This document shows, piece by piece, positions 1 through 64,000 of a stretch of DNA of 64,000 nt (position 1 is its first letter; each line of letters opens with the position of its first letter). The notes beneath the pieces were generated by a model. The model was not told where the DNA came from and did no database searches. It saw nothing but the letters and a program-made list of their open reading frames with translations. The stretch is from Nitrosopumilus sp. Lineage in GTDB: Archaea; Thermoproteota; Nitrososphaeria; Nitrososphaerales; Nitrosopumilaceae. The position numbers were made by a program, and so were the translations under genes. The stretch is from positions 1,408,001-1,472,000 of the forward strand of contig OZ241981.1 in the NCBI GenBank assembly GCA_965204345.1, given 5' to 3'.

Positions 1-296
1 AAAGAAACGATCTAACGGCTTTTAGTGAAATACTTAGAAAAGGATGGGATGAAAAAAAGAAATTCGCACGCCAGATTACAGATAAGTCAATTGATGATGT
101 GGTTAAACGTGCAACGACCCTAGGAGTTCAAGGAATGAAAATTACGGGGGCAGGTGGGGGCGGGCACATCTTTGCATATGCAGATTCAGGCAAACATAAA
201 AAAATTATCTCCAATCTAGAAAAAATAGGTATAAAACATATACCATTTCATTATACATTCTCTGGAACAGTTGCTTTTAATACAAGTTTTTTATAG
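1..296 (+). CDS. hddA: GHMP-family sugar kinase (D-glycero-alpha-D-manno-heptose-7-phosphate kinase-like), 3' part; runs off window start
   Basis: Identical to the 3' end of 2878..3894 (GMKITGAGGGG motif); offset 3598 bp. Confidence 0.8.
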   Translation, partial: RNDLTAFSEILRKGWDEKKKFARQITDKSIDDVVKRATTLGVQGMKITGAGGGGHIFAYADSGKHKKIISNLEKIGIKHIPFHYTFSGTVAFNTSFL

Positions 297-317
297 ATTT
301 TTTTGGTGAGGTAAGAT

Positions 318-905
318 ATGAATGACATCGTAAAGGATTATTTAATTCATCAAGAAGAATGTCTTGAAAAAATAAAGACAGATTTTTTTTCAGACAAAAT
401 TAAGAAAATTTTTGGGATTTTGATTAACGCACGTGATAATGGCAATCGCGTGTTTGTTATGGGCAATGGCGGAAGTGCATCTACAGCATCTCACTTTGTT
501 GCGGATTTATTAAAAACAAGTATTGTGAAAAATTCGAAAAGATTTCAAGCGTTATCTTTGTCAGATAATATTCCAGTCATGTTGGCATGGGCAAATGATT
601 TTTCTTACGATGACATATTTGTAGGACAGTTAGAAAATTTCTTGGAGGAAAAAGACATAGTGGTTGGAATTAGCAGCAGTGGAAATTCAAACAACGTAAT
701 CAGAGCAGCCAAATATGCAAACGACAAAGGTGCGCACTGTATTGCATTGACAGGCAAAGATGGAGGCAAATTATCAAATATATCTGCCACAAATTTAACA
801 GTTCCAAGTAATGACATTCTAACTATCGAGACTATGCATTTGATGACATGTCATTTATTAATCGCAATGATTAGAGAATCAGGTACGCCTTTCTACAAAT
901 ATTAA
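318..905 (+). CDS. gmhA: Phosphoheptose isomerase (SIS domain)
   Basis: GNGGSASTASHF, ANDFSYDDIF..QL, ISSSGNS.N, ETMHL motifs. Confidence 0.9.
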   Translation: MNDIVKDYLIHQEECLEKIKTDFFSDKIKKIFGILINARDNGNRVFVMGNGGSASTASHFVADLLKTSIVKNSKRFQALSLSDNIPVMLAWANDFSYDDIFVGQLENFLEEKDIVVGISSSGNSNNVIRAAKYANDKGAHCIALTGKDGGKLSNISATNLTVPSNDILTIETMHLMTCHLLIAMIRESGTPFYKY

Positions 906-906
906 A

Positions 907-1395
907 TTGCAAAAGAAAGCCATATTTTTAGATAGGGACGGAGTCATTAACCAAAACAGAAAAGACTACGTCAAAGAGTTATCAGAATTTGAAATATTTG
1001 ACTGGGTAGGAGAATCAGTCAAACTGTTCAAGGATGCAGGATATTTGGTGATAATAATAACAAATCAATCAGCTATAGGAAGGAGATTACTCACACATGA
1101 AGAATTAAAAAAAATACATGATTGCCTTGAGAACTATCTTAAAACATTCAAGACAAAGATTGATGCAATATATTATTGCCCACATACGCCAGAAGACAAT
1201 TGTGATTGTAGAAAACCCAAGCCCGGGTTGTTGCTTGCTGCAATACAGGATTTTCAAGTTGATTTGTCAAACAGTTGGATGGTAGGAGATTCGACTGCAG
1301 ATATCATGGCCGCAACGTCAGCTGGATGCAGATCATACATGATAAAAGAGAATTTAACATTGCTTGATATTGCAATACATATATGTAAAGGATAA
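907..1395 (+). CDS. gmhB: Heptose-1,7-bisphosphate phosphatase (HAD)
   Basis: FLDRDGVIN, TNQS, CPH..C.CRKPKPG, MVGD motifs. Confidence 0.9.
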   Translation: MQKKAIFLDRDGVINQNRKDYVKELSEFEIFDWVGESVKLFKDAGYLVIIITNQSAIGRRLLTHEELKKIHDCLENYLKTFKTKIDAIYYCPHTPEDNCDCRKPKPGLLLAAIQDFQVDLSNSWMVGDSTADIMAATSAGCRSYMIKENLTLLDIAIHICKG

Positions 1396-1638
1396 GATTT
1401 TGAATTGTGGTTAATTAAGGACATCGTCAGACATGCAGTTACGGATAGATAAAGAGAGGAAGAAGTAAGGAGCGAGTAAATAAATCAATAAATAACGGAT
1501 TGATTGATTGTGTAAATTAATTTCCTTTATTTCAGATAAGATGGGATTATAAATTCTGGCTATAAATTAGACATCAAGTATCATCAACATATAAATTATT
1601 TTTTGTCTTTTGATTTTTTGTTCTTCTTCTTGTTCTTT

Positions 1639-2769
1639 TGTATTATATGAAAATCATATCCGCTAGTCATTCATGTCTGCCTCCATCCATTTTTGGTTGC
1701 TTTTTCTGATCGCATCAGGAACCTTTTTGGCCTTAAATGCCATCAGAGGCACCTGGCAGTTCTCTATGTCCAGAGAAAAATGCAGTCTATCCTTATTGTA
1801 AAAATCGATGAACTCCCCCATCGTCTTAAAGTGTACAATCTCATCCTCAAGTGTCCTGAAGAATCTCTCAATCTTGCCGTTGGCCTGCGGGTGGTGGTGG
1901 TGGTGGTGGTGGTGGGAGCGTGAGTCAATCAGGGCAATACTCCTCTCCAGAGCTTCTTCCTCAAACATGGTGAGCCTCTATCCCTTGGCAGGTATACCGC
2001 GGTTTCGGGATGTGAACTGGGCGCCGTTGTCTGAAAGTATCTGGCCTGGCGTGCCAAATGACTTGATAGTCTTGCGCAAAACGGCTACAGTGTTCTGGCT
2101 TGTGGCACTATCAAATATCCCGAATCCCGTTATGCATCTTGATGCATCATCCAGATATGCCACAAGTTGCAATCCTTTTAGGCGTGGATCCTTCATTTTG
2201 GCCAGTCCATATCCCACATTGCATTGGAATACAGTCACTCGTATCTGACGTACTTTCTCTTCTTGGATTTTTCAGGAGACAGCTTAACTAGTCCATTGGA
2301 TTTCATTATTTGGTAATGCTGTATGGTATCTTATATGAGATGACTTTCTGAGGTGGCGAGCTGTGTGCACTACTGCATGAATATCATCATATGTCTTAAG
2401 AACACGACGTTTAAGTGGTGACGGCATCGTCTAGGGCTTCGAGCCTGCATGAATATCATCATATGTCTTAAGAACACGACGTACATCCTCAGGTGATGGT
2501 ATCTTTCTGGGTCTTTCTGCCTTTCTGTGGGGGAGTATTCTTCCGGTCTTGCGGTAGGCTGCCCATATGCGTCTGACGTGTCTTGCGCTGACCTGCATGG
2601 TCTGGGCCAGAACAGATGCTGCACCTGTGCCCTTTTGATGCTGCCGTATGATGTATCTAATCTGAACTTCTTTTAGTCTGGTTCTCTTCATTATTCGTGA
2701 TCTGTATATGCGGTAATAATCCCTTGCCTGAAGCCTGAGCTTAGGCGGACATAATTTTCGTACAATAGA
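1639..2769 (-). mobile_element. IS481-family element copy 1, degraded (frameshifts, in-frame TAG, 72-bp insertion)
   Basis: HTH N-terminus, DDASR, ILSDNGAQF and HPQ.NGKIERF rve-integrase motifs in split ORFs; 25-bp imperfect IRs TGTATTATATGAAAATCATATCCGC / TCTATTGTACGAAAATTATGTCCGC. Confidence 0.9.
2373..2482. repeat. 38-bp direct repeat pair enclosing a 34-bp unique insert (inside IS copy 1; again at 5971..6080)
   Basis: CTGCATGAATATCATCATATGTCTTAAGAACACGACGT at 2373-2410 and 2445-2482; single copy and no insert in IS copies 3 and 4. Confidence 0.9.
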
Positions 2770-2847
2770 TTTGCGAAACCAGATGAAAGACTAAAAACGT
2801 TAAAACTGGATGATGATGATCCTGCTCATGCAAGAGATGTTAATTAA
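2770..2847 (+). pseudogene. 3' remnant of a gene truncated by the IS end
   Basis: Open frame FAKPDERLKTLKLDDDDPAHARDVN* starts immediately at the IS terminus, with no start codon. Confidence 0.5.
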
Positions 2848-2877
2848 TATGAAGTATTTTCAGCAGTACTAACACAC

Positions 2878-3894
2878 ATGATTGTTGGTAGATCACCACT
2901 AAGAATCAGTTTTGCAGGGGGAGGAACTGATCTTGAAGAATATTACAAAAGATATACAGGTCATACCATTAGTTTCACAATCAGCAAAAATACACATGTC
3001 GTCATACAAAAAAGAGAGGATGAAAAATTCCAGGGATTTTCTCCAGATTTTCAAACGCATCATCCCCCAGAAAAATATTCAAAAGTAAGGAAAAATCTTC
3101 AGGGTCATGAAATAATCATAGCAGTTTTAAAGGAATTAAACGTTACAAAAGGAATAAACGCATTTTTTTGCAGTGATGTAAACGCGGGTTCAGGGCTAGG
3201 TGCATCATCATCACTTGCAACAAATTTAGTTAATACCGTACTTTTTATGGAAGAGCAAAAATGGACAAAAAAGAGAATTGCAGAGAAGGCATATGAGATA
3301 GCACATAATGTTTTAAAATGGAACTTGGGAAAACAAGATGAGTTTTCTTCATCTTATGGTGGATTGAATCTCTTTGAATTTACTAAAGATAATGTCAAGA
3401 CTGAAAGACTTTTGTTGAACAAATCTACCTTCAGAGAGATTCAAGATAATTCGTTGTTGTTTTCATTAGAAAGAAAGCGACAGCCCTCTAGCACGATCTT
3501 AAAAGACCAAGCAGAAAAAACTAAGAAGAATGATCCCCGTACAATAAATGCCCTGCACAATACAAATCAATTTGCTTTAGAATTGCGGGACTGCTTAAAA
3601 AGAAACGATCTAACGGCTTTTAGTGAAATACTTAGAAAAGGATGGGATGAAAAAAAGAAATTCGCACGCCAGATTACAGATAAGTCAATTGATGATGTGG
3701 TTAAACGTGCAACGACCCTAGGAGTTCAAGGAATGAAAATTACGGGGGCAGGTGGGGGCGGGCACATCTTTGCATATGCAGATTCAGGCAAACATAAAAA
3801 AATTATCTCCAATCTAGAAAAAATAGGTATAAAACATATACCATTTCATTATACATTCTCTGGAACAGTTGCTTTTAATACAAGTTTTTTATAG
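2878..3894 (+). CDS. hddA: D-glycero-alpha-D-manno-heptose-7-phosphate kinase-like GHMP kinase
   Basis: RSPLRISFAGGGTD, GSGLGASS, GKQD, GAGGGG motifs; adjacent to gmhA/gmhB. Confidence 0.85.
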   Translation: MIVGRSPLRISFAGGGTDLEEYYKRYTGHTISFTISKNTHVVIQKREDEKFQGFSPDFQTHHPPEKYSKVRKNLQGHEIIIAVLKELNVTKGINAFFCSDVNAGSGLGASSSLATNLVNTVLFMEEQKWTKKRIAEKAYEIAHNVLKWNLGKQDEFSSSYGGLNLFEFTKDNVKTERLLLNKSTFREIQDNSLLFSLERKRQPSSTILKDQAEKTKKNDPRTINALHNTNQFALELRDCLKRNDLTAFSEILRKGWDEKKKFARQITDKSIDDVVKRATTLGVQGMKITGAGGGGHIFAYADSGKHKKIISNLEKIGIKHIPFHYTFSGTVAFNTSFL

Positions 3895-3915
3895 ATTTTT
3901 TTGGTGAGGTAAGAT

Positions 3916-4503
3916 ATGAATGACATCGTAAAGGATTATTTAATTCATCAAGAAGAATGTCTTGAAAAAATAAAGACAGATTTTTTTTCAGACAAAATTA
4001 AGAAAATTTTTGGGATTTTGATTAACGCACGTGATAATGGCAATCGCGTGTTTGTTATGGGCAATGGCGGAAGTGCATCTACAGCATCTCACTTTGTTGC
4101 GGATTTATTAAAAACAAGTATTGTGAAAAATTCGAAAAGATTTCAAGCGTTATCTTTGTCAGATAATATTCCAGTCATGTTGGCATGGGCAAATGATTTT
4201 TCTTACGATGACATATTTGTAGGACAGTTAGAAAATTTCTTGGAGGAAAAAGACATAGTGGTTGGAATTAGCAGCAGTGGAAATTCAAACAACGTAATCA
4301 GAGCAGCCAAATATGCAAACGACAAAGGTGCGCACTGTATTGCATTGACAGGCAAAGATGGAGGCAAATTATCAAATATATCTGCCACAAATTTAACAGT
4401 TCCAAGTAATGACATTCTAACTATCGAGACTATGCATTTGATGACATGTCATTTATTAATCGCAATGATTAGAGAATCAGGTACGCCTTTCTACAAATAT
4501 TAA
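3916..4503 (+). CDS. gmhA: Phosphoheptose isomerase (second copy)
   Basis: Identical to 318..905. Confidence 0.9.
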   Translation: MNDIVKDYLIHQEECLEKIKTDFFSDKIKKIFGILINARDNGNRVFVMGNGGSASTASHFVADLLKTSIVKNSKRFQALSLSDNIPVMLAWANDFSYDDIFVGQLENFLEEKDIVVGISSSGNSNNVIRAAKYANDKGAHCIALTGKDGGKLSNISATNLTVPSNDILTIETMHLMTCHLLIAMIRESGTPFYKY

Positions 4504-4504
4504 A

Positions 4505-4993
4505 TTGCAAAAGAAAGCCATATTTTTAGATAGGGACGGAGTCATTAACCAAAACAGAAAAGACTACGTCAAAGAGTTATCAGAATTTGAAATATTTGAC
4601 TGGGTAGGAGAATCAGTCAAACTGTTCAAGGATGCAGGATATTTGGTGATAATAATAACAAATCAATCAGCTATAGGAAGGAGATTACTCACACATGAAG
4701 AATTAAAAAAAATACATGATTGCCTTGAGAACTATCTTAAAACATTCAAGACAAAGATTGATGCAATATATTATTGCCCACATACGCCAGAAGACAATTG
4801 TGATTGTAGAAAACCCAAGCCCGGGTTGTTGCTTGCTGCAATACAGGATTTTCAAGTTGATTTGTCAAACAGTTGGATGGTAGGAGATTCGACTGCAGAT
4901 ATCATGGCCGCAACGTCAGCTGGATGCAGATCATACATGATAAAAGAGAATTTAACATTGCTTGATATTGCAATACATATATGTAAAGGATAA
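4505..4993 (+). CDS. gmhB: Heptose bisphosphate phosphatase (second copy)
   Basis: Identical to 907..1395. Confidence 0.9.
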   Translation: MQKKAIFLDRDGVINQNRKDYVKELSEFEIFDWVGESVKLFKDAGYLVIIITNQSAIGRRLLTHEELKKIHDCLENYLKTFKTKIDAIYYCPHTPEDNCDCRKPKPGLLLAAIQDFQVDLSNSWMVGDSTADIMAATSAGCRSYMIKENLTLLDIAIHICKG

Positions 4994-5236
4994 GATTTTG
5001 AATTGTGGTTAATTAAGGACATCGTCAGACATGCAGTTACGGATAGATAAAGAGAGGAAGAAGTAAGGAGCGAGTAAATAAATCAATAAATAACGGATTG
5101 ATTGATTGTGTAAATTAATTTCCTTTATTTCAGATAAGATGGGATTATAAATTCTGGCTATAAATTAGACATCAAGTATCATCAACATATAAATTATTTT
5201 TTGTCTTTTGATTTTTTGTTCTTCTTCTTGTTCTTT

Positions 5237-6367
5237 TGTATTATATGAAAATCATATCCGCTAGTCATTCATGTCTGCCTCCATCCATTTTTGGTTGCTT
5301 TTTCTGATCGCATCAGGAACCTTTTTGGCCTTAAATGCCATCAGAGGCACCTGGCAGTTCTCTATGTCCAGAGAAAAATGCAGTCTATCCTTATTGTAAA
5401 AATCGATGAACTCCCCCATCGTCTTAAAGTGTACAATCTCATCCTCAAGTGTCCTGAAGAATCTCTCAATCTTGCCGTTGGCCTGCGGGTGGTGGTGGTG
5501 GTGGTGGTGGTGGGAGCGTGAGTCAATCAGGGCAATACTCCTCTCCAGAGCTTCTTCCTCAAACATGGTGAGCCTCTATCCCTTGGCAGGTATACCGCGG
5601 TTTCGGGATGTGAACTGGGCGCCGTTGTCTGAAAGTATCTGGCCTGGCGTGCCAAATGACTTGATAGTCTTGCGCAAAACGGCTACAGTGTTCTGGCTTG
5701 TGGCACTATCAAATATCCCGAATCCCGTTATGCATCTTGATGCATCATCCAGATATGCCACAAGTTGCAATCCTTTTAGGCGTGGATCCTTCATTTTGGC
5801 CAGTCCATATCCCACATTGCATTGGAATACAGTCACTCGTATCTGACGTACTTTCTCTTCTTGGATTTTTCAGGAGACAGCTTAACTAGTCCATTGGATT
5901 TCATTATTTGGTAATGCTGTATGGTATCTTATATGAGATGACTTTCTGAGGTGGCGAGCTGTGTGCACTACTGCATGAATATCATCATATGTCTTAAGAA
6001 CACGACGTTTAAGTGGTGACGGCATCGTCTAGGGCTTCGAGCCTGCATGAATATCATCATATGTCTTAAGAACACGACGTACATCCTCAGGTGATGGTAT
6101 CTTTCTGGGTCTTTCTGCCTTTCTGTGGGGGAGTATTCTTCCGGTCTTGCGGTAGGCTGCCCATATGCGTCTGACGTGTCTTGCGCTGACCTGCATGGTC
6201 TGGGCCAGAACAGATGCTGCACCTGTGCCCTTTTGATGCTGCCGTATGATGTATCTAATCTGAACTTCTTTTAGTCTGGTTCTCTTCATTATTCGTGATC
6301 TGTATATGCGGTAATAATCCCTTGCCTGAAGCCTGAGCTTAGGCGGACATAATTTTCGTACAATAGA
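5237..6367 (-). mobile_element. IS481-family element copy 2 (identical to copy 1), degraded
   Basis: Same split ORFs and IRs; flanked by a near-duplicated TTTGTTCTT(CTTCTT)GTTCTTT. Confidence 0.9.
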
Positions 6368-6458
6368 TTTGTTCTTGTTCTTTAAGAAAATTTAAAAGAG
6401 AAATAAATTGTATGTCTGTAACTTATAATAACAGGTATTTGTTGTGAGGCATATAAGC

Positions 6459-9573: not shown

Positions 9574-11733
9574 TTGTATTTCTCTAAATTTAAGATGCTT
9601 TCAGCCGGCTTTTTTCTACGAATACCTTCCTCGTCGTCATCCCCATCCTCACGTTTTCAAGGTGTCTGTAACGAATTTTTGCTAACATATTTCCTGTTTT
9701 CGGCATACGCATTACTTTACATGGTCCTGACTGCAACCATATTAAAGATAAAAATTTTTCCAACCATCGACAGAATAACATACGTGGATGCAGTAGTCAG
9801 ATGGACGATAACTGATTCGCTGCAATACGACATGCTGTTTGCATCCATAATTTTTGCAACGGCATTGCTCTTGTCGTTTAGAAAAAAGATATCAGTTTCT
9901 TTCTCAGTCATGCTACTGGTACCGGTCATCTCTGCGTCGTTTTTTGATTTTTTTCTCGAAGTTTCTCAAATGGTTTTCATCTTCTCAATGCCGACAGCAC
10001 TCACATTATTCTTGGTTGGTTATTACTTGTCTAACTACAGCCAGAAAAAGAAGAAGAAGAGCTCATCTAGCTTGGAGAAACCAGAAGAGGTGGCAACGGG
10101 TCACAGCTTCAGGCATGCGTTGTCTGTATTTTTTTCAGTTATTCTACTAGTTGAATTGGCAGCGGCACTCAGATGGGTTCTAACGCCTGTGGTTTTGGAA
10201 TTGCCCAAAAACCACTGGAGTTGGAACATAGTGTCTTTGGAAAACAGCGTGTTTTATGTTCTGGGCCTGATGGTTCCGTCCATCTTTTTGCTTTGCATCC
10301 TGTCTTTTTTGATAAAACCGTTTGTACAAAAAATATATTCAGGCATCAGCAGCGGCGGCGGCAACAACGGCAAAGACGGCAGCGGCACTACCACTGACAC
10401 TGCCATCACGCAGCAGCAGCAGCCTCAAAGACGACGACATTCAGATGATCTTGATGGCAAAAGCCCAACTGCAAACGGCCAAAAATCATTGAAAATAACA
10501 AATTTAAAAAAATACAGCCCCGTCATCTTGCTCTCAAAAATTGATTTTGATGGCAGTACGCGAAACGTTGCCTTGATGTTGTTGCTGGCAATGATATCGT
10601 CAGTTTTGATATCATTGTTTCCATACGCAGTATCCATAGTAGATGCGGACAAGTCATTTGGCACTGACGTCAAAAACTACACTGGCTGGCTTTGGCCGAT
10701 TAATTCGGCTGCCGGCCTTGAGAGCATGCTCCGTCTGGCATTCTTTGAAATAAACGAGGGTTCCAGACCCCTGACGCTGCTTTCAATATATTTTATCTCC
10801 CATATCTCCCAGTACGAGCAGGAGATTGTTTTAAAATATTTGCCAACAGTGCTGGGTCCGCTACTAGTAGCATCCACATATTTCTTTACGAGGGCTGCCT
10901 ATCCTCAGAACAGGAAGATTGCAGTGATCACATCGGTGATCACGTCAGTATCACCGCAGATAGTAATCGGGTTTTATGCGGCATTTTACGCAAATTGGTT
11001 TGCCTTGATTTTTATTTTAATCTCCTCAACGTTTCTAATCAAGTGCGTACGAAGGCAGGATCATCATCATCATCATCACGATTTTAGAAACATGACACTG
11101 TTTGGCGGCACCCTGCTGTTGGTGTTATTTTTTCATTCGTATGCATGGAGTTATTTTATGGCAACAGTTATGCTATACCTCATATGGTCACTGGCAATAA
11201 AAAAACGCAGAAAAGAGTCGGCAAAAATTTGTATCATTTTGGTGGCAGTGACATTATCCATACTTTCAGTGGATCTGTCCAGATCATATTTTGGAAACAC
11301 ATCAGATAGTTTTGAGAAAGACTTGCTGATAGCAGATTCGTCAATTAGTTATTACGAGTTTGTAAACAGATGGGCCAACTTTAATAACACTTTTTTTGTC
11401 TTTCTTGGGGGGTTTCTGACAAATTTTATGCTGCTAGGCCTGCTATTTGTATGGACCCTGCAAACAAAGCACTCGAGTCATTCAGACAGATTCTTCCTTT
11501 CGATGTTGCTGGTATCAGTGCTGCCAATCTTATTTGGGGATTTCAACGTACAGTCCAGAATATTTTACAACATTCCGTTCCACATTCCTGCAAGCGTTAT
11601 GTTGTACAAAATATACCAGAGCAACCAGACAAGGCCATTTGGCAAAATACTGGTCGTTGTGACAATATTGTTTCAGTTCAACTATGCATTAAGGGGGATG
11701 TCAAACATGAATTTTGCATCACCGATACAATGA
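9574..11733 (+). CDS. Multi-pass membrane protein, putative GT-C-fold glycosyltransferase
   Basis: Many hydrophobic segments, G.D..Y loop motif, glycosylation context; exact start uncertain. Confidence 0.6.
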   Translation: MYFSKFKMLSAGFFLRIPSSSSSPSSRFQGVCNEFLLTYFLFSAYALLYMVLTATILKIKIFPTIDRITYVDAVVRWTITDSLQYDMLFASIIFATALLLSFRKKISVSFSVMLLVPVISASFFDFFLEVSQMVFIFSMPTALTLFLVGYYLSNYSQKKKKKSSSSLEKPEEVATGHSFRHALSVFFSVILLVELAAALRWVLTPVVLELPKNHWSWNIVSLENSVFYVLGLMVPSIFLLCILSFLIKPFVQKIYSGISSGGGNNGKDGSGTTTDTAITQQQQPQRRRHSDDLDGKSPTANGQKSLKITNLKKYSPVILLSKIDFDGSTRNVALMLLLAMISSVLISLFPYAVSIVDADKSFGTDVKNYTGWLWPINSAAGLESMLRLAFFEINEGSRPLTLLSIYFISHISQYEQEIVLKYLPTVLGPLLVASTYFFTRAAYPQNRKIAVITSVITSVSPQIVIGFYAAFYANWFALIFILISSTFLIKCVRRQDHHHHHHDFRNMTLFGGTLLLVLFFHSYAWSYFMATVMLYLIWSLAIKKRRKESAKICIILVAVTLSILSVDLSRSYFGNTSDSFEKDLLIADSSISYYEFVNRWANFNNTFFVFLGGFLTNFMLLGLLFVWTLQTKHSSHSDRFFLSMLLVSVLPILFGDFNVQSRIFYNIPFHIPASVMLYKIYQSNQTRPFGKILVVVTILFQFNYALRGMSNMNFASPIQ

Positions 11734-11812
11734 AAACCCCATGATGCAACCAGAATTATACCAGCCTCTATTTTGTCAAACATGAATTTTGCATCACCGA
11801 TACAATGAAAAC
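11699..11812. repeat. 39-bp perfect direct repeat pair enclosing a 36-bp unique insert (mirror copy at 16895..17008)
   Basis: TGTCAAACATGAATTTTGCATCACCGATACAATGAAAAC at 11699-11737 and 11774-11812. Confidence 0.9.
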
Positions 11813-14219: not shown

Positions 14220-15254
14220 TCTATTGTACGAAAATTATGTCCGCCTAAGCTCAGGCTTCAGACAAGGGATTATTACCGCATATACCGATCACGAATAATG
14301 AAGAGAACCAGACTAAAAGGAGATCAGATTAGATACATCATACGGCAGCATCAAAAGGGCACAGCTGCAGCAGTCTGGCCCAGACCATGCAGGTCAGCGC
14401 AAGACACGTCAGACGCATATGGGCAGCCTACCGCAAGACCGGAAGAATACTCCCCCACAGAAAGGCAGAAAGACCCAGAAAGATACCATCACCTGAGGAT
14501 GTACGTCATGTTCTTAAGACATATGATGATATTCATGCAGTAGTAGTGCGCACGACTCGCCACCTCAGAAAGTCATCTCATATAAGCTACCATACGGTAT
14601 ACCAAATAATGAAATCCAACGGACTGGCCAGACTGTCTCCTGAAAAATCCAAGAAGAGGAAATACGTCAGATACGAGCGACTGTATTCCAATGCAATGTG
14701 GCATGTGGACTGGCCAAAATGAAGGATCCACGCCTGAAAGGACTGCAACTTGTGGCATATCTGGATGATGCATCAAGATGCATAACGGGATTCGAGATAT
14801 TTGAGTGCCACAAGCCAGAACACTGTAGCCGTTTTGCGCAAGGCTATCAAGTCATTTGGCACGCCAGGTCAGATACTTTCAGACAATGGAGCCCAGTTCA
14901 CATCCCGGAACCGCGGTGTACCTGCCAAGGGATGGAAGCCCACCCTGTTTGAGGAGGAAGCTCTAGAGAGGGGTATTGCCCTGATTAACTCGCGCCCCCA
15001 CCACCCGCAGACCAACGGCAAGATTGAAAGATTCTTCAAGACACTTAAGGATGAGATTGTACACTTAAGACAGTAGGGGAGTTCATCGATTTTTACAATG
15101 AGGATAGGTTGCATTTTTCTCTGGACATAGAGAACTGTCAGGTGCCCCTGATGGCATTTAAGGCCAAAAAGGTTCCTGATGCGATCAGGAAAAACAACCA
15201 AAAATGGATGGAGGTGGACATAAATGACTAGCGGACATATTATCATATAATACA
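14220..15254 (+). mobile_element. IS481-family element copy 3, frameshifted
   Basis: Split transposase ORFs 14298-15076 and onward; IRs TCTATTGTACG... and ...ATATAATACA. Confidence 0.9.
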
Positions 15255-15512
15255 ATCACAATACTAGAACTTACAAAAATACTAATGAAACTCATGGATT
15301 TGGATTTGGAAATACTCTTTGATGTCAATCATCCTAACGGTCAACCAAGACGCTTGTTGGACATATCTAAAGCTAAAAACGAGTTTGGCTGGAAACCCCA
15401 AATAAAGTTTGAAGAGGGATTAAAAGAGCTGATTGCTTGGTATCTTAATAATCCACAAGACAAGACCAAGAGCATTGAGAAGAAAAGGATTCTTAACCCA
15501 GACTTGTCTTGA
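15255..15512 (+). pseudogene. fcl: 3' fragment of fcl at the start of the right inverted arm
   Basis: Reverse complement of 13195-13452, beginning exactly at the IS end. Confidence 0.9.
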
Positions 15513-16775: not shown

Positions 16776-16973
16776 GGCATTACACAGATGTCAGGATTTT
16801 GCAACAACAGACAGATATTTGAGACTTTGTCAAGCAAGTACCGTAGCCTGTTTTTCATTTTTAAGTCTTTTTAGCCTTCTTCCCGTGTCCTGCCGTTTTC
16901 ATTGTATCGGTGATGCAAAATTCATGTTTGACAAAATAGAGGCTGGTATAATTCTGGTTGCATCATGGGGTTT

Positions 16974-19133
16974 TCATTGTATCGGTGATGCAAAATTCAT
17001 GTTTGACATCCCCCTTAATGCATAGTTGAACTGAAACAATATTGTCACAACGACCAGTATTTTGCCAAATGGCCTTGTCTGGTTGCTCTGGTATATTTTG
17101 TACAACATAACGCTTGCAGGAATGTGGAACGGAATGTTGTAAAATATTCTGGACTGTACGTTGAAATCCCCAAATAAGATTGGCAGCACTGATACCAGCA
17201 ACATCGAAAGGAAGAATCTGTCTGAATGACTCGAGTGCTTTGTTTGCAGGGTCCATACAAATAGCAGGCCTAGCAGCATAAAATTTGTCAGAAACCCCCC
17301 AAGAAAGACAAAAAAAGTGTTATTAAAGTTGGCCCATCTGTTTACAAACTCGTAATAACTAATTGACGAATCTGCTATCAGCAAGTCTTTCTCAAAACTA
17401 TCTGATGTGTTTCCAAAATATGATCTGGACAGATCCACTGAAAGTATGGATAATGTCACTGCCACCAAAATGATACAAATTTTTGCCGACTCTTTTCTGC
17501 GTTTTTTTATTGCCAGTGACCATATGAGGTATAGCATAACTGTTGCCATAAAATAACTCCATGCATACGAATGAAAAAATAACACCAACAGCAGGGTGCC
17601 GCCAAACAGTGTCATGTTTCTAAAATCGTGATGATGATGATGATGATCCTGCCTTCGTACGCACTTGATTAGAAACGTTGAGGAGATTAAAATAAAAATC
17701 AAGGCAAACCAATTTGCGTAAAATGCCGCATAAAACCCGATTACTATCTGCGGTGATACTGACGTGATCACCGATGTGATCACTGCAATCTTCCTGTTCT
17801 GAGGATAGGCAGCCCTCGTAAAGAAATATGTGGATGCTACTAGTAGCGGACCCAGCACTGTTGGCAAATATTTTAAAACAATCTCCTGCTCGTACTGGGA
17901 GATATGGGAGATAAAATATATTGAAAGCAGCGTCAGGGGTCTGGAACCCTCGTTTATTTCAAAGAATGCCAGACGGAGCATGCTCTCAAGGCCGGCAGCC
18001 GAATTAATCGGCCAAAGCCAGCCAGTGTAGTTTTTGACGTCAGTGCCAAATGACTTGTCCGCATCTACTATGGATACTGCGTATGGAAACAATGATATCA
18101 AAACTGACGATATCATTGCCAGCAACAACATCAAGGCAACGTTTCGCGTACTGCCATCAAAATCAATTTTTGAGAGCAAGATGACGGGGCTGTATTTTTT
18201 TAAATTTGTTATTTTCAATGATTTTTGGCCGTTTGCAGTTGGGCTTTTGCCATCAAGATCATCTGAATGTCGTCGTCTTTGAGGCTGCTGCTGCTGCGTG
18301 ATGGCAGTGTCAGTGGTAGTGCCGCTGCCGTCTTTGCCGTTGTTGCCGCCGCCGCTGCTGATGCCTGAATATATTTTTTGTACAAACGGTTTTATCAAAA
18401 AAGACAGGATGCAAAGCAAAAAGATGGACGGAACCATCAGGCCCAGAACATAAAACACGCTGTTTTCCAAAGACACTATGTTCCAACTCCAGTGGTTTTT
18501 GGGCAATTCCAAAACCACAGGCGTTAGAACCCATCTGAGTGCCGCTGCCAATTCAACTAGTAGAATAACTGAAAAAAATACAGACAACGCATGCCTGAAG
18601 CTGTGACCCGTTGCCACCTCTTCTGGTTTCTCCAAGCTAGATGAGCTCTTCTTCTTCTTTTTCTGGCTGTAGTTAGACAAGTAATAACCAACCAAGAATA
18701 ATGTGAGTGCTGTCGGCATTGAGAAGATGAAAACCATTTGAGAAACTTCGAGAAAAAAATCAAAAAACGACGCAGAGATGACCGGTACCAGTAGCATGAC
18801 TGAGAAAGAAACTGATATCTTTTTTCTAAACGACAAGAGCAATGCCGTTGCAAAAATTATGGATGCAAACAGCATGTCGTATTGCAGCGAATCAGTTATC
18901 GTCCATCTGACTACTGCATCCACGTATGTTATTCTGTCGATGGTTGGAAAAATTTTTATCTTTAATATGGTTGCAGTCAGGACCATGTAAAGTAATGCGT
19001 ATGCCGAAAACAGGAAATATGTTAGCAAAAATTCGTTACAGACACCTTGAAAACGTGAGGATGGGGATGACGACGAGGAAGGTATTCGTAGAAAAAAGCC
19101 GGCTGAAAGCATCTTAAATTTAGAGAAATACAA
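16974..19133 (-). CDS. Multi-pass membrane protein, putative GT-C fold (inverted copy)
   Basis: Identical protein to 9574..11733. Confidence 0.6.
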   Translation of the reverse strand: MYFSKFKMLSAGFFLRIPSSSSSPSSRFQGVCNEFLLTYFLFSAYALLYMVLTATILKIKIFPTIDRITYVDAVVRWTITDSLQYDMLFASIIFATALLLSFRKKISVSFSVMLLVPVISASFFDFFLEVSQMVFIFSMPTALTLFLVGYYLSNYSQKKKKKSSSSLEKPEEVATGHSFRHALSVFFSVILLVELAAALRWVLTPVVLELPKNHWSWNIVSLENSVFYVLGLMVPSIFLLCILSFLIKPFVQKIYSGISSGGGNNGKDGSGTTTDTAITQQQQPQRRRHSDDLDGKSPTANGQKSLKITNLKKYSPVILLSKIDFDGSTRNVALMLLLAMISSVLISLFPYAVSIVDADKSFGTDVKNYTGWLWPINSAAGLESMLRLAFFEINEGSRPLTLLSIYFISHISQYEQEIVLKYLPTVLGPLLVASTYFFTRAAYPQNRKIAVITSVITSVSPQIVIGFYAAFYANWFALIFILISSTFLIKCVRRQDHHHHHHDFRNMTLFGGTLLLVLFFHSYAWSYFMATVMLYLIWSLAIKKRRKESAKICIILVAVTLSILSVDLSRSYFGNTSDSFEKDLLIADSSISYYEFVNRWANFNNTFFVFLGGFLTNFMLLGLLFVWTLQTKHSSHSDRFFLSMLLVSVLPILFGDFNVQSRIFYNIPFHIPASVMLYKIYQSNQTRPFGKILVVVTILFQFNYALRGMSNMNFASPIQ

Positions 19134-19179: not shown

Positions 19180-24165
<4,986 letters not shown>

Positions 24166-32074: not shown

Positions 32075-33116
32075 TGTATTATATGAAAATCATATCCGCT
32101 AGTCATTCATGTCTGCCTCCATCCATTTTTGGTTGCTTTTTCTGATCGCATCAGGAACCTTTTTGGCCTTAAATGCCATCAGAGGCACCTGGCAGTTCTC
32201 TATGTCCAGAGAAAAATGCAGCCTATCCTCATTGTAAAAGTCGATGAATTTCCCTACCGTCTTAAAGTGTACAAGCTCATCCTCAAGTGTCCTAAAGAAT
32301 CTCTCAATCTTGCCGTTGGCCTGCGGGTGGTGGGAGCGTGAGTCAATCAGGGCAATACTCCTCTCCAGAGCTTCTTCCTCAAACATGGTGAGCCTCTATC
32401 CCTTGGCAGGTACACCGCGGTTTCTGGATGTGAACTGGGCTCCATTGTCTGAAAGTATTTGACCTGGCGTGCCAAATGACTTGATAGCCTTGCGCAAAAC
32501 GGCTACAGTGTTCTGGCTTGTGGCACTATCAAATATCTCGAATCCCGTTATGCATCTGGGATGCATCATCCAGATATGCCACAAGTTGCAGTCCTTTCAG
32601 GCGTGGATCCTTCATTTCGTGCCAGTCCACATGCCACATTGCATTGGAATACAGTCGCTCATATCTGACGTACTTTCTCTTCTTGGATTTTTCAGGAGAC
32701 AGTCTGGCCAGTCCGTTGGATTTCATTATTTGGTATACCGTATGGTAGCTTATATGAGATGACTTTCTGAGGTGGCGAGTCGTGCGTACTACTCCTGCAT
32801 GAATATCATCATATGTCTTAAGAACACGACGTACATCCTCAGATGATATTGTCTTTCTGGGTCTTCCTGGCTTTCTGTGGGAGTTTATTGTTCCGGTCTT
32901 GCGGTAGGCTGCCCATATGCGTCTGACGTGCCTTGCGCTGACCTGCATGGTTTGGGCCAGAACAGATGCAGCTGTGCCCTTTTGACGCTGACGTATGATG
33001 TATCTGGTCTGATCCTCCTTTAGTCTGATTCTCTTCATTATTCGTGATCGGTATATGCGGTAATAATCCCTTGCCTGAAGCCTGAGCTTAGGCGGACATA
33101 ATTTTCGTACAATAGA
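32075..33116 (-). mobile_element. IS481-family element copy 4, frameshifted with in-frame TAG
   Basis: Split ORFs 32529-33038, 32396-32584 and 32099-32386; same IRs. Confidence 0.9.
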
Positions 33117-48725: not shown

Positions 48726-50159
48726 TTACTCTTTATCCTTTTCAGATCTTACATCCGTACTGTCATCTTCAATGGGCTCTTCTGTTTCTTGCATCTCTTT
48801 TTTAATCCCTTCAGACTTCTTGCCTGCTGATTCATCTAACTGATCCAAATCTTCGGATTTAGGCATGTGTTCAGAGTATTCTGAATCCTTTTCCATCTTC
48901 CCAATACCTGATAATTCCTCACTTGGTTCAGAGTATTCTGAATCCTTTTCCATCTTCCCAATACCTGATAATTCCTCACTTGGTTCAGAGTATTCTGAAT
49001 CCTTTTCCATCTTCCCAATACCTGATAATTCCTCACTTGGTTCAGAGTATTCTGAATCCTTTTCCATCTTCCCAATACCTGATAATTCCTCACTTGGTTC
49101 AGAGTATTCTGAATCCTTTTCCATCTTCCCAATACCTGATAATTCCTCACTTGGTTCAGAGTATTCTGAATCCTTTTCCATCTTCCCAATACCTGATAAT
49201 TCCTCACTTGGTTCAGAGTATTCTGAATCCTTTTCCATCTTCCCAATACCTGATAATTCCTCACTTGGTTCAGAGTATTCTGAATCCTTTTCCATCTTCC
49301 CAATACCTGATAATTCCTCACTTGGTTCAGAGTATTCTGAATCCTTTTCCATCTTCCCAATACCTGATAATTCCTCACTTGGTTCAGAGTATTCTGAATC
49401 CTTTTCCATCTTCCCAATACCTGATAATTCCTCACTTGGTTCAGAGTATTCTGAATCCTTTTCCATCTTCCCAATACCTGATAATTCCTCACTTGGTTCA
49501 GAGTATTCTGAATCCTTTTCCATCTTCCCAATACCTGATAATTCCTCACTTGGTTCAGAGTATTCTGAATCCTTTTCCATCTTCCCAATACCTGATAATT
49601 CCTCACTTGGTTCAGAGTATTCTAAATTATCCTGCAATGGATCTGAAAGTACTGTTTCTTTTTTCCTTTTTGCAAACTGTTTAGCAATCATAATTCCGAT
49701 GACTACAGCAATTATGATGTAATTGATTGGCGGTTTTATTATCTGAGTAACATATCCTATCTGTGGAAGTATATATTCTACTTTTCCTATGTATTCTTCT
49801 TCTGTAATTGGAAAATCAGTGCCTGGAATTGATCCTGGATTTGCGTCTCCTTGTGTTTTTACCGTCTTTGGATCGTGTGATTGAATTTCTACTACTCTGT
49901 GTACAATTACTCTGTCATGGTCCGATGGCCGATTAAACACAATGATATCCCCAATCGCGATATCCTCAAACGGTTCGTTACCTTGAACTATCAGAATGTC
50001 ATATACTTGTAAAACTGGAACCATACTCCCACTTGCAACAACATAAAATGGATTCTGCGTTCCAAATGCTACTTGCAGGCCTATCCAAATCACCAAAACT
50101 CCAACACCGACAATTATGATGTCTTTTACTATTCCTTTTGAGATTGATATTTTTGTCAA
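48726..50159 (-). CDS. Signal peptidase I (Sec11/S26B) with expanded acidic C-terminal repeat tail
   Basis: VVASGSM.P, GDIIVF, IVHRV, TQGDAN. Confidence 0.88.
   Translation of the reverse strand: MTKISISKGIVKDIIIVGVGVLVIWIGLQVAFGTQNPFYVVASGSMVPVLQVYDILIVQGNEPFEDIAIGDIIVFNRPSDHDRVIVHRVVEIQSHDPKTVKTQGDANPGSIPGTDFPITEEEYIGKVEYILPQIGYVTQIIKPPINYIIIAVVIGIMIAKQFAKRKKETVLSDPLQDNLEYSEPSEELSGIGKMEKDSEYSEPSEELSGIGKMEKDSEYSEPSEELSGIGKMEKDSEYSEPSEELSGIGKMEKDSEYSEPSEELSGIGKMEKDSEYSEPSEELSGIGKMEKDSEYSEPSEELSGIGKMEKDSEYSEPSEELSGIGKMEKDSEYSEPSEELSGIGKMEKDSEYSEPSEELSGIGKMEKDSEYSEPSEELSGIGKMEKDSEYSEPSEELSGIGKMEKDSEYSEPSEELSGIGKMEKDSEYSEHMPKSEDLDQLDESAGKKSEGIKKEMQETEEPIEDDSTDVRSEKDKE
48869..49623. repeat. 13 perfect tandem copies of a 57-bp (19-aa) unit
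   Basis: GTTCAGAG at 48869 and 49610 = 13 x 57; SEYSEPSEELSGIGKMEKD. Confidence 0.95.
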
Positions 50160-62969: not shown

Positions 62970-64000
62970 CTACCAAAATCGCCACCAAGGCTTTGCAGAT
63001 GATGGATTATCCACAATTTTACATACTCCATCAATTAATTTAGTACCAGGACCACAGATTCCAAACTTTTTCTCTTCTATTTTAGGTTCCTCCAACCCTA
63101 CTGCCTGATAAATTGAGTCATATTCCGAATATGTCTTATCAAACCACTCTTTGTAGGCATCCTCCGTATTGTATCTATCAACATAGCTTTGCACATCTTT
63201 GGATTCATCTACAAATGGTGCAGGAACCGGCAGTGGCTCCTCCAACCCTACTGCCTGATAAATTGAGTCATATTCCGAATATGTCTTATCAAACCACTCT
63301 TTGTAGGCATCCTCCGTATTGTATCTATCAACATAGCTTTGCACATCTTTGGATTCATCTACAAATGGTGCAGGAACCGGCAGTGGCTCCTCCAACCCTA
63401 CTGCATGATAAATTGAGTCATATTCCGAATATGTCTTATCAAACCACTCTTTGTAGGCATCCTCCGTATTGTATCTATCAACATAGCTTTGCACATCTTT
63501 GGATTCATCTACAAATGGTGCAGGAACCGGCAGTGGCTCCTCCAACCCTACTGCATGATAAATTGAGTCATATTCCGGATATGTCTTATCAAACCACTCT
63601 TTGTAGGCATCCTCCGTATTGTATCTATCAACATAGCTTTGCACATCTTTGGATTCATCTACAAACGGTGCAATTCCTAACTCTTTTGGTTGTGAGTCAT
63701 CTACCACGTCATTGACAGTTACAGTTACAGTTGTTCTGTCTGAGAGCCCACCTTTTTTTGCAACTATATCAAAGGTGTATGTTTTCCCACCGTCTGATGA
63801 TGTTGGTGTCCATGAGAACATGCCTGTATTTGGTGTGATTTTAGCTCCTGCTAGGGAGCTTTTCTCCAAACTAAATACTGCATCTTTTATTGAATTATCC
63901 ACTAGTTTTACTGTAAATGATAGTAATTTTCCTTCATCTATGGTTAATTTTCTTATTGGGCTGATCTGGATATTTGTCAATTCTGGTGTTGCAGAAGATT
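62970..64000 (-). CDS. Surface protein, partial (Ig/cadherin-like domain plus four 50-aa repeats); runs off window end
   Basis: GAKI..NTG.FSWTP Ig-like motif; APFVD..KD.QSYVDRYN.E..YKEWFD repeats; CGPGT.L.DGVC; frame open to window end. Confidence 0.8.
   Translation of the reverse strand, partial: SSATPELTNIQISPIRKLTIDEGKLLSFTVKLVDNSIKDAVFSLEKSSLAGAKITPNTGMFSWTPTSSDGGKTYTFDIVAKKGGLSDRTTVTVTVNDVVDDSQPKELGIAPFVDESKDVQSYVDRYNTEDAYKEWFDKTYPEYDSIYHAVGLEEPLPVPAPFVDESKDVQSYVDRYNTEDAYKEWFDKTYSEYDSIYHAVGLEEPLPVPAPFVDESKDVQSYVDRYNTEDAYKEWFDKTYSEYDSIYQAVGLEEPLPVPAPFVDESKDVQSYVDRYNTEDAYKEWFDKTYSEYDSIYQAVGLEEPKIEEKKFGICGPGTKLIDGVCKIVDNPSSAKPWWRFW
63087..63672. repeat. About four tandem 150-bp intragenic repeats
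   Basis: Units at 63087/63237/63387/63537 with few substitutions. Confidence 0.92.

Follow-up and report, generated by a model that had tools for sequence, protein, structure and literature searches.

Off-target spacer integration has been described in E. coli over-producing Cas1-Cas2, where it gives rise to 'neo-CRISPR' loci (Nivala, Shipman & Church 2018, as related in PMC7054753, PMC6698737, PMC11788318 and bioRxiv 10.1101/148544), and the available text of the last of these accounts speaks of 'circumstantial evidence' for natural off-target integration in two other species. In vitro, off-target integration is documented for Cas1-Cas2 of Pyrococcus furiosus (PMC6698737) and of Thermotoga profunda (PMC13769266), in the latter case with suppression of off-target events by HU; as the accessible parts of both reports have it, Cas1-Cas2 alone integrates into non-CRISPR DNA with repeat-like features, the positions of the two cuts being fixed by a ruler in combination with motifs inside the repeat and at its junction. 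For CRISPR1 and CRISPR3 of Streptococcus thermophilus, spacer acquisition within the array that is ectopic or slipped is on record (PMC7999890, PMC5338259). A bioRxiv search for natural off-target arrays returned nothing relevant, and as far as we know off-target integration is known only sparsely from natural genomes. Shmakov et al., in a 2020 article in CRISPR J, are said to have proposed that some isolated mini-arrays arise de novo from off-target integration.

The locus reported here, in a Nitrosopumilus chromosome, resembles the E. coli loci, as the available accounts depict them, in its spacer-sized insert, in the repeat-length duplication of a non-CRISPR target, and in belonging to a set of sites that share features of the leader-repeat junction. 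Unlike those loci, the Nitrosopumilus events are natural and occurred without over-expression, with 22 in one chromosome and 6-7 in a relative; moreover, one event struck cas1 itself and differs in presence between natural samples, the system lacks its interference genes, and some events display junction microhomology. In contrast to the plasmid assays with the P. furiosus and T. profunda enzymes, they are fixed genomic footprints. One further unit (C1:1886549-1886660) was acquired at the wrong position within the host array and to that extent recalls ectopic acquisition in S. thermophilus as far as described; however, it is out of register with the repeat rather than at an internal repeat border, and 476 kb of chromosome separate the array from the scar that is our main subject, which lies in unrelated DNA. 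The mini-arrays attributed to Shmakov et al. are reportedly also two-repeat, one-spacer units away from cas genes, with locus-specific 'repeats'.

A 72-bp insertion within an insertion sequence

The window, a stretch of 64,000 nucleotides, corresponds to C1:1408001-1472000 in a 2.12-Mb assembly of 9 contigs with a Nitrosopumilus chromosome of 2.04 Mb. The host is a sponge-associated ammonia-oxidising archaeon. Window positions 2373-2482 consist of an exact 38-bp direct repeat flanking a unique 34-bp insert; direct reading and a repeat search both confirm the first-pass annotation, which had resolved the 72 additional bp into a 38-bp duplication and a 34-bp insert. The features concerned are the following (window positions unless marked C1).

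1..6371, strand not assigned: in-window part of an IS-genes-IS-genes-IS tandem amplification, period 3598 bp, 100% identity
1639..2769, minus strand: IS copy bearing the scar; transposase with HTH and rve DDE domains, fragmented; expanded (GGT)n / His-codon tract
2373..2410, plus strand: first copy of the target-site duplication, 38 bp; on the leader side, provided that the site has the orientation of the host repeat (CTGCATGAATATC...)
2411..2444, plus strand: spacer-sized insert, 34 bp, 56% G+C
2445..2482, plus strand: second copy of the target-site duplication, 38 bp, with no difference from the first
5237..6367, minus strand: second scar-bearing IS copy (tandem unit 2)
5971..6080, plus strand: identical scar (38+34+38) one 3598-bp tandem unit further on, with 38-mers at 5971-6008 and 6043-6080
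14503..14540, minus strand: empty site in the inverted IS copy 3 (IS 14220-15255); 38-mer once, 1 mismatch
32795..32832, plus strand: empty pre-insertion site in IS copy 4 (IS 32075-33116); 38-mer once
C1:1406775-1406884: third identical scar copy, upstream of the window

The carrier element is about 1.13 kb long, and its fragmented minus-strand ORFs match HTH_29, HTH_21, HTH_32 and rve/rve_3 domains, a predicted architecture compatible with the earlier label 'IS481'. A whole-genome BLAST search with the IS located the 72 bp in three IS copies, all within the tandem region. For each of the seven other full-length copies the alignment is broken in two, with 38-39 bp of the subject shared by both parts; all seven thus carry the empty site. 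For the copies at about 32.8 kb and 14.5 kb, which had been proposed to preserve the pre-insertion state, base-by-base alignment leads to the same result, showing a single 38-mer with neither the insert nor the second repeat. The tandem region occupies C1:1406292-1414371 and comprises 2.25 units of 3598 bp, 100% identical to one another, in the arrangement IS-genes-IS-genes-IS. Since the units are identical, scar included, and all three IS copies there carry it, the scar is older than the 3.6-kb amplification, as had been suggested.

A match of the 34-bp insert to nearby sequence would have spoken against the first-pass reading, but in the entire genome BLAST finds it only in its three amplified copies. 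Nor does it occur in 400 other Nitrosopumilaceae genomes when up to 3 mismatches are allowed, and viral contigs and metagenome contigs hold no exact match, so that its protospacer was not found in these sets. Its length agrees with the spacers of 32-38 bp implied by the host array unit of 68-72 bp, and the 38-bp duplication compares with a host repeat core of 34-36 nt and with a mean duplication of 36.3 bp in the family of scars described below.

A chromosome-wide family of scars and their target sites

When k-mers were used to look for direct repeats lying 55-95 bp from one another in the genome, many solo units of this size came to light in unrelated locations. In a loose scan for isolated exact direct repeats of at least 30 bp spaced 30-300 bp apart, 25 of 46 had a spacing of 65-79 bp. 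A strict filter was then defined, which retains isolated, non-tandem, exact repeats of at least 28 bp with a spacing of 40-140 bp and an insert sharing no 8-mer with the duplication or its flanks; on the chromosome this left 30 repeats, 26 of them spaced 65-79 bp. If a scar is taken to be a duplication of 31-44 bp with an insert of 30-39 bp and a spacing of 66-79 bp, 23 loci qualify, representing 19 independent events, three of which were duplicated afterwards, namely the scar at window 2373 (three copies), C1:1419699/1424895 and C1:1765720/1848731. Together with three near-exact units (C1:486267, 718691 and 1704438) these strict events form a set of 22 independent solo units of duplication plus insert, in which duplications of 31-39 bp (36.3 +/- 2.25 bp) accompany inserts of 33-39 bp (35.1 +/- 1.55 bp) and the sum of the two is 71.4 +/- 1.65 bp. 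Across the scars the two lengths are negatively correlated (r = -0.68).

Several candidates were dropped: C1:250576, with an atypical duplication reaching about 52 bp; C1:167191, a 33+33 unit within a 7.6-kb ORF that is possibly a coding repeat; C1:718060, with a low-complexity insert; C1:1682090 and 1236292, which are related to tandem repeats or of the wrong size; and C1:110352 and 1974847, whose short duplications could not be extended. The loci C1:905180, 1400070 and 193709 resemble older scars with decayed duplication edges. A '44-nt match' to C1:1400070 was rejected as a protospacer, being a paralogous copy of the whole structure.

A second independent event and its copy lie within the window itself:

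11699..11812, plus strand: scar with a 39-bp duplication and a 36-bp insert, at the 3' end of a 2163-nt open frame
16895..17008, minus strand: inverted copy of that scar, lying in a segment of at least 1 kb that is duplicated in inverse orientation with 100% identity

Two of the 22 scars reside in the carrier IS family. Besides the one at window 2373 there is C1:1045502, which sits in another, partly deleted IS copy about 50-85 bp away in IS coordinates and has at least 10 empty paralogous copies; similarly, the scar at C1:1765720 has an empty paralogous site at C1:1730731-1730765. Most scars are intergenic or in short frames, and the three within long ORFs (72, 69 and 75 bp) are in frame and stop-free, adding 23-25 codons, a distribution that is the one expected from survivor bias. 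One scar site and the 3' end of tRNA-Ser(CGA) overlap; the T-arm of this tRNA (GGATTCGAAC) is similar to the repeat end, and a second scar lies 3 bp away.

The inserts have little in common. In a BLAST search of all 22 against the genome none matched another independent insert, and no common termini were detected. Their mean G+C content of 39.7% is close to the 38.7% of the genome. The idea that they are hairpins or palindromes was rejected, the mean z being +0.15, with one of the 22 below -2. Five of the 22, as well as the insert of the unit within the array, match the host's own chromosome over their full length in ordinary genes, the translations of which resemble, by eye, TrpA, an NFACT protein and a UPF0182 protein. 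Four self-matching inserts differ from their source by 1-3 bases, whereas their flanking duplications are nearly all identical (by hand count, about 7 differences in 138 nt between insert and source versus 1 in 147 nt in the duplications), and one self-matching insert also matches the relatives G013 and G229. The numbers are small, and they hint that some prespacers came from related strains and not from the cell itself. No consistent PAM was seen beside six self-protospacers, a small number in which the orientation of some sites is ambiguous.

The target sites share a signature. An orientation-free EM procedure applied to 4 nt of flank and 8 nt at each end of the 22 sites recovered 7.03 bits of information, compared with 4.29 +/- 0.40 bits in 200 random site sets (maximum 5.63; none of the 200 reached the observed value). 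Its elements are a G three bases before the duplication in 15 of the 22 sites, no G at -1, and, a few bases inside the duplication, a run rich in A; at the canonical junction of leader and repeat in the host, GGCT immediately precedes the repeat and CTGAATAG stands at the start of the repeat. When the 22 sites are compared with the 13 nt that open the host repeat, their similarity totals 117, and random sets give 97.4 +/- 6.6 (7 of 3000 reach the observed value); a test of both repeat ends gives 158 against 144.8 +/- 4.9 (13 of 2000). The first-pass annotation had proposed aligning the window-2373 target with the host leader-repeat junction. On the plus strand the site shares 8 of its first 13 nt with the host repeat, counted from the leader-proximal end (CTGCATGAATATC vs CTGAATAGAATTC), and has the same CTG at the junction, a score equalled by 0.97% of random 13-mers; at any single site such likeness to the junction is weak. 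The loose resemblance to a CRISPR repeat that had been noted therefore stands for the host's own repeat (CTGAATAG...ATTGAAAC in crRNA sense) and falls for the 'GTCG-starting' repeats originally named.

The host CRISPR locus and those of relatives

The host array (C1:1886280-1886669) has six repeats with periods of 72, 68, 70, 72 and 72 bp, a unit equal to the summed duplication and insert of the scars. In crRNA sense, which is the minus strand, its repeat is CTGAATAG...ATTGAAAC, also given as CTGAATAG...AAGATTGAAAC. Beside the array lie cas4, cas2 and cas1, in the minus-strand order cas1, cas2, cas4, array, with Pfam matches to Cas_Cas1 in two halves (E 3e-34 and 1.6e-26), CRISPR_Cas2 (3.2e-16) and Cas_Cas4 (3.7e-16). 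This cas1 is the sole Cas1-family match in the genome, and hence there is no casposase. Profile searches of the genome for Cas6_C, DevR/Cas7, RAMPs and Cas5d gave no matches; Cas3-like_C_2 matches occur elsewhere within long open frames, in what we take to be unrelated helicases, and a remnant of the Cas6b C-terminal domain is present in a 5'-truncated open frame of 131 codons beside a tyrosine-integrase-like ORF. A full type I-B set (Cas6b, Cas8b, Cas7, Cas5 and Cas3 with cas1-cas2-cas4 and an array) was not found in the genome. With only a split cas1, cas2, cas4, the six-repeat array and the Cas6b remnant present, the locus is thus a decayed, adaptation-only remnant of a type I-B-like system and not a working one.

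The split in cas1 is itself a scar. A 38+34 unit at C1:1888134-1888243 divides the gene into two ORFs; removing the 72 bp in silico restores a single open frame of 1011 nt, and the two halves are colinear with the 328-residue Cas1 of G013, at 63% and 59% identity. The stretch containing this scar is present in public runs from four studies, mostly labelled as sponge metagenomes. In run X1, a contig of 2,523 nt passes straight from L002:12133 to 12206, skipping 72 letters, with 38 letters that fit on either side, and over its length differs otherwise by one letter and one single-letter gap; this scar-free contig comes from a 2010 metagenome. A contig of run X10 spans the insert. The allele calls are taken from these two runs, as X4 does not cover L002:12180-12447 and the contigs of X2 stop at the duplication. 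Intact and scarred cas1 alleles therefore both exist in nature, and the presence of the scar in X10 together with its absence in X1 rules out an assembly artefact for this class of unit. At L002:12171 a loose end in X2 apparently places the cas1-scar insert in another context. Neither this insert nor that of window 11738-11773 has an exact match in viral contigs, and the former has none in metagenome contigs.

The array, too, varies. At its repeat borders X2, X4 and X10 show alternative continuations, which we read as spacer polymorphism, although related arrays of other strains could look alike. At the leader-proximal repeat the unit mentioned above (C1:1886549-1886660) is an off-register 40+32 event in which 13 nt of spacer and 27 nt of repeat were duplicated; C1:1209418-1209449 matches its insert at 100% identity.

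Two members of the same genus provide a comparison. G013 encodes cas3-cas6b-cas1-cas2-cas4 followed by an array of 66 repeats, with a 36-nt repeat ending in GATTGAAAC and periods of 70-72 bp. Its whole genome (1,699,898 bp) contains six scars by the strict filter and seven by eye, with duplications of 35-37 bp and inserts of 34-36 bp, and two of the seven inserts are 100% identical to G013's own genes. In G229, a search for Cas1 homologues gave no match, and the 1,188,200 of 1,360,076 bp scanned hold no isolated non-tandem repeat of the scar class; as a Cas1-less control this is weak, being a single, smaller and probably more streamlined genome of which 87% was scanned. Elsewhere, Cas1 homologues were recovered in 21 of 300 other sampled Nitrosopumilaceae genomes, a tally that takes in the unpublished genomes G258 and G260, the closest having 62% identity. 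A search of genome contigs with the G013 Cas1 returned two loci, one of them G013's own, and was left out of all counts.

Origin of the scars and its implications

The geometry of the scar, its empty sites, the equal-sized family, the match to the array unit, the presence of cas1-cas2-cas4, the target signature, the self-derived inserts and the scar-free cas1 together make off-target integration the best reading. Accordingly, we assign a probability of roughly 0.88 to the view that the 72 bp arose by off-target spacer integration by the host Cas1-Cas2(-Cas4) into an IS copy that was subsequently amplified in tandem. The integrase, loaded with a prespacer of about 34-36 bp, would have attacked both strands of a non-CRISPR site inside the IS at points approximately one repeat length apart, with the spacer joined in between. 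Gap repair would then have duplicated the 38 bp between the cuts, yielding a repeat-spacer-repeat unit with a locus-specific 'repeat', and the 3.6-kb tandem amplification would have copied the scarred IS to three places. Cas1-Cas2 is the probable catalyst. Of the properties that characterize neo-CRISPR loci, the scar at window 2373 has a repeat-length duplication, a spacer-length insert, an empty site, host-encoded Cas1 and Cas2, and a junction-like target; so understood, it is a further natural case of an already known kind of event. Loss of the interference genes probably allowed self-derived spacers to be tolerated, and the scar in cas1 presumably ended the process in this lineage.

The main rival is a replication or repair accident independent of CRISPR, in which a nascent strand moves to another template where it meets microhomology, copies about 35 nt and returns upstream of its point of departure, leaving both an insert and a duplication. 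Where the source of the insert is known, the flanks of the source can be compared with the ends of the target: two of eight such scars have microhomologies of 4+5 nt and 4+1 nt, which would suit template switching, whereas the other six have just 0-2 nt. Over all 16 junctions the microhomology adds up to 18 nt, where chance would give about 5.3. Part of this is explained by fortuitous lengthening of the apparent duplication, which does not account for the 9-nt case. The copying of the cell's own genes into some inserts and the mutual compensation of duplication and insert lengths would also suit a wandering nascent strand. On the other hand, such a strand has no reason to produce a fixed sum equal to the CRISPR unit of both the host and G013, and just four of the 30 isolated repeats retained by the strict filter fall outside the 65-79-bp spacing class. 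Template switching moreover leaves unexplained the resemblance of the targets to a leader-repeat junction, the off-register event at the leader-proximal repeat, and the absence of such units from 1.19 Mb of the Cas1-less G229. We therefore consider it unlikely. Under integration by Cas1-Cas2, the microhomology may mean that pairing of incompletely trimmed prespacer ends with the target aids capture at non-cognate sites; alternatively, the second joint could sometimes be made by host repair.

An insert between direct duplications would equally be left by a tiny mobile element with a long target-site duplication, such as a MITE-like element, a casposon or another transposon remnant, and the scar does lie in an IS-rich region. 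Casposon target duplications, however, are about 14-15 bp long and not 35-39. Such an element is also hard to reconcile with 22 inserts that have neither sequence nor termini in common and are not hairpins, with several inserts that are exact pieces of housekeeping genes, and with a genome whose single Cas1-family gene is that of the CRISPR locus; we regard this origin as very improbable. An assembly or sequencing artefact might be suspected because the scar sits among IS copies and in a tandem amplification, repeats of the sort that assemblies can get wrong; it is the least credible explanation of all, given the identity of the unique insert in three units, the equivalent scar in the single-copy cas1 that independent public runs show both with the insert (X10) and without it (X1), and the same scar class in the independent assembly of G013.

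Several observations nevertheless count against integration by Cas1-Cas2. The search for a protospacer of the 34-bp insert in the genome, 400 relatives and the viral and metagenome contigs was negative, and there is no consistent PAM despite a cas4 gene. The duplication of 38 bp exceeds the 34-36 bp of the host repeat core, and the negative correlation of duplication and insert lengths is a further difficulty. Junction microhomology is not predicted by the textbook Cas1-Cas2 reaction and would suit a template switch. Finally, cas1 is broken in this assembly, and the Cas1-negative control comprises one genome with the limits of size, streamlining and coverage given above.

A wider proposal can be made tentatively, at somewhat short of even odds. 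The type I-B adaptation module of this Nitrosopumilus lineage may be intrinsically loose in its choice of targets, such that off-target integration is a regular and still ongoing mutational process in wild populations. This activity would have outlived the loss of the interference genes and written own and foreign DNA into two dozen places, including in-frame protein insertions of 23-25 codons, a tRNA end and the array, before finally destroying its own cas1 in a form of 'integrase suicide', with microhomology between prespacer ends and target helping the choice of non-cognate sites. If so, the scars would constitute a natural molecular record and raw material for new arrays.

Three things are remarkable here: how many events one genome holds, the striking of cas1 with both alleles found in nature, and the occurrence of all this in a decayed, effector-less system. 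The 22 mapped and dated natural events, with the 6-7 of the relative, give access to the intrinsic target specificity of an archaeal type I-B integrase. They also expose a genomic cost of CRISPR adaptation, in the form of insertional mutagenesis, self-derived spacers and a cas1 inactivated by its own product, and this cost bears on why many lineages lose CRISPR-Cas. In genome annotation, such units should not be labelled as CRISPR arrays or tandem repeats. For the sponge-associated archaeon itself, the scars serve as presence/absence markers that differ between natural samples, and each is a candidate starting point for a new array.

Scarred and scar-free forms of cas1

The scars of about 72 bp, each a target duplication with a spacer-sized insert and read as off-target spacer integration, extend to the CRISPR machinery itself, as one lies in the integrase gene:

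C1:1888134-1888243 (L002:12134-12243, in the stretch around the host CRISPR array and cas4-cas2-cas1; outside the window): scar of 38 + 34 bp splitting cas1, of the same kind as the window scar

These 72 bp are exactly missing from one contig of the public run X1 and are present in run X10; scarred and scar-free cas1 alleles thus both occur in natural samples. The reaction that the CRISPR integrase carries out seems to have knocked out the integrase's own gene.

The array and its neighborhood

Two further features of the CRISPR locus lie outside the window:

C1:1886549-1886660: off-register integration at the array's leader-proximal repeat
C1:1882556-1884672 (L002:6556-8672): tyrosine-integrase-like ORF of 563-579 codons, abutting a 5'-truncated cas6b remnant

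The off-register unit holds a 32-nt insert, whose source is C1:1209418-1209449, flanked by a duplication of 13 nt of spacer and 27 nt of repeat. At this scar 4+1 nt at the target ends are identical to the sequence flanking the spacer source, and at the scar at C1:1947301 the figure is 4+5 nt; such junction microhomology is unexpected under the textbook integration reaction. The array repeat also serves arrays with other spacers within the same metagenomes (X2, X4 and X10). An integrating element may have disrupted the effector genes of this CRISPR-Cas locus. Behind one array repeat (L002:10455-10490) several differing continuations were seen in runs X2, X4 and X10, and the summed contig depth there is very high in X4.

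Other repeats in and near the window

Window 1886-1915 and 5484-5513, and C1:1406121-1406317: (GGT)n tract inside the IS transposase, a His-codon run on the minus strand
Window 20303-22800: exact tandem array, 495-bp unit, 5 copies
Window 48755-49795: exact tandem array, 57-bp unit, about 14 copies
Window 63085-63822: exact tandem array, 150-bp unit, about 4 copies

The (GGT)n tract has grown to about 170-200 bp in the IS copy that opens the tandem IS-genes amplification. Besides the long exact arrays, trinucleotide tracts are numerous too.

Scars at a tRNA gene and in open frames

Further scars, likewise outside the window, lie at a tRNA gene or within open frames:

C1:486267-486486: two independent scars with 3 bp between them
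C1:162808, 499885 and 1546947: scars of 72, 69 and 75 bp in open frames of 2058, 939 and 3375 nt, respectively

The second scar of the pair duplicates the 3' end of tRNA-Ser(CGA), and the pair may be either a new array at its earliest stage or a hot spot arising from the repeat-like T-arm. The latter three scars keep the reading frame and introduce no stops, and are equivalent to natural protein insertions of 23-25 residues.
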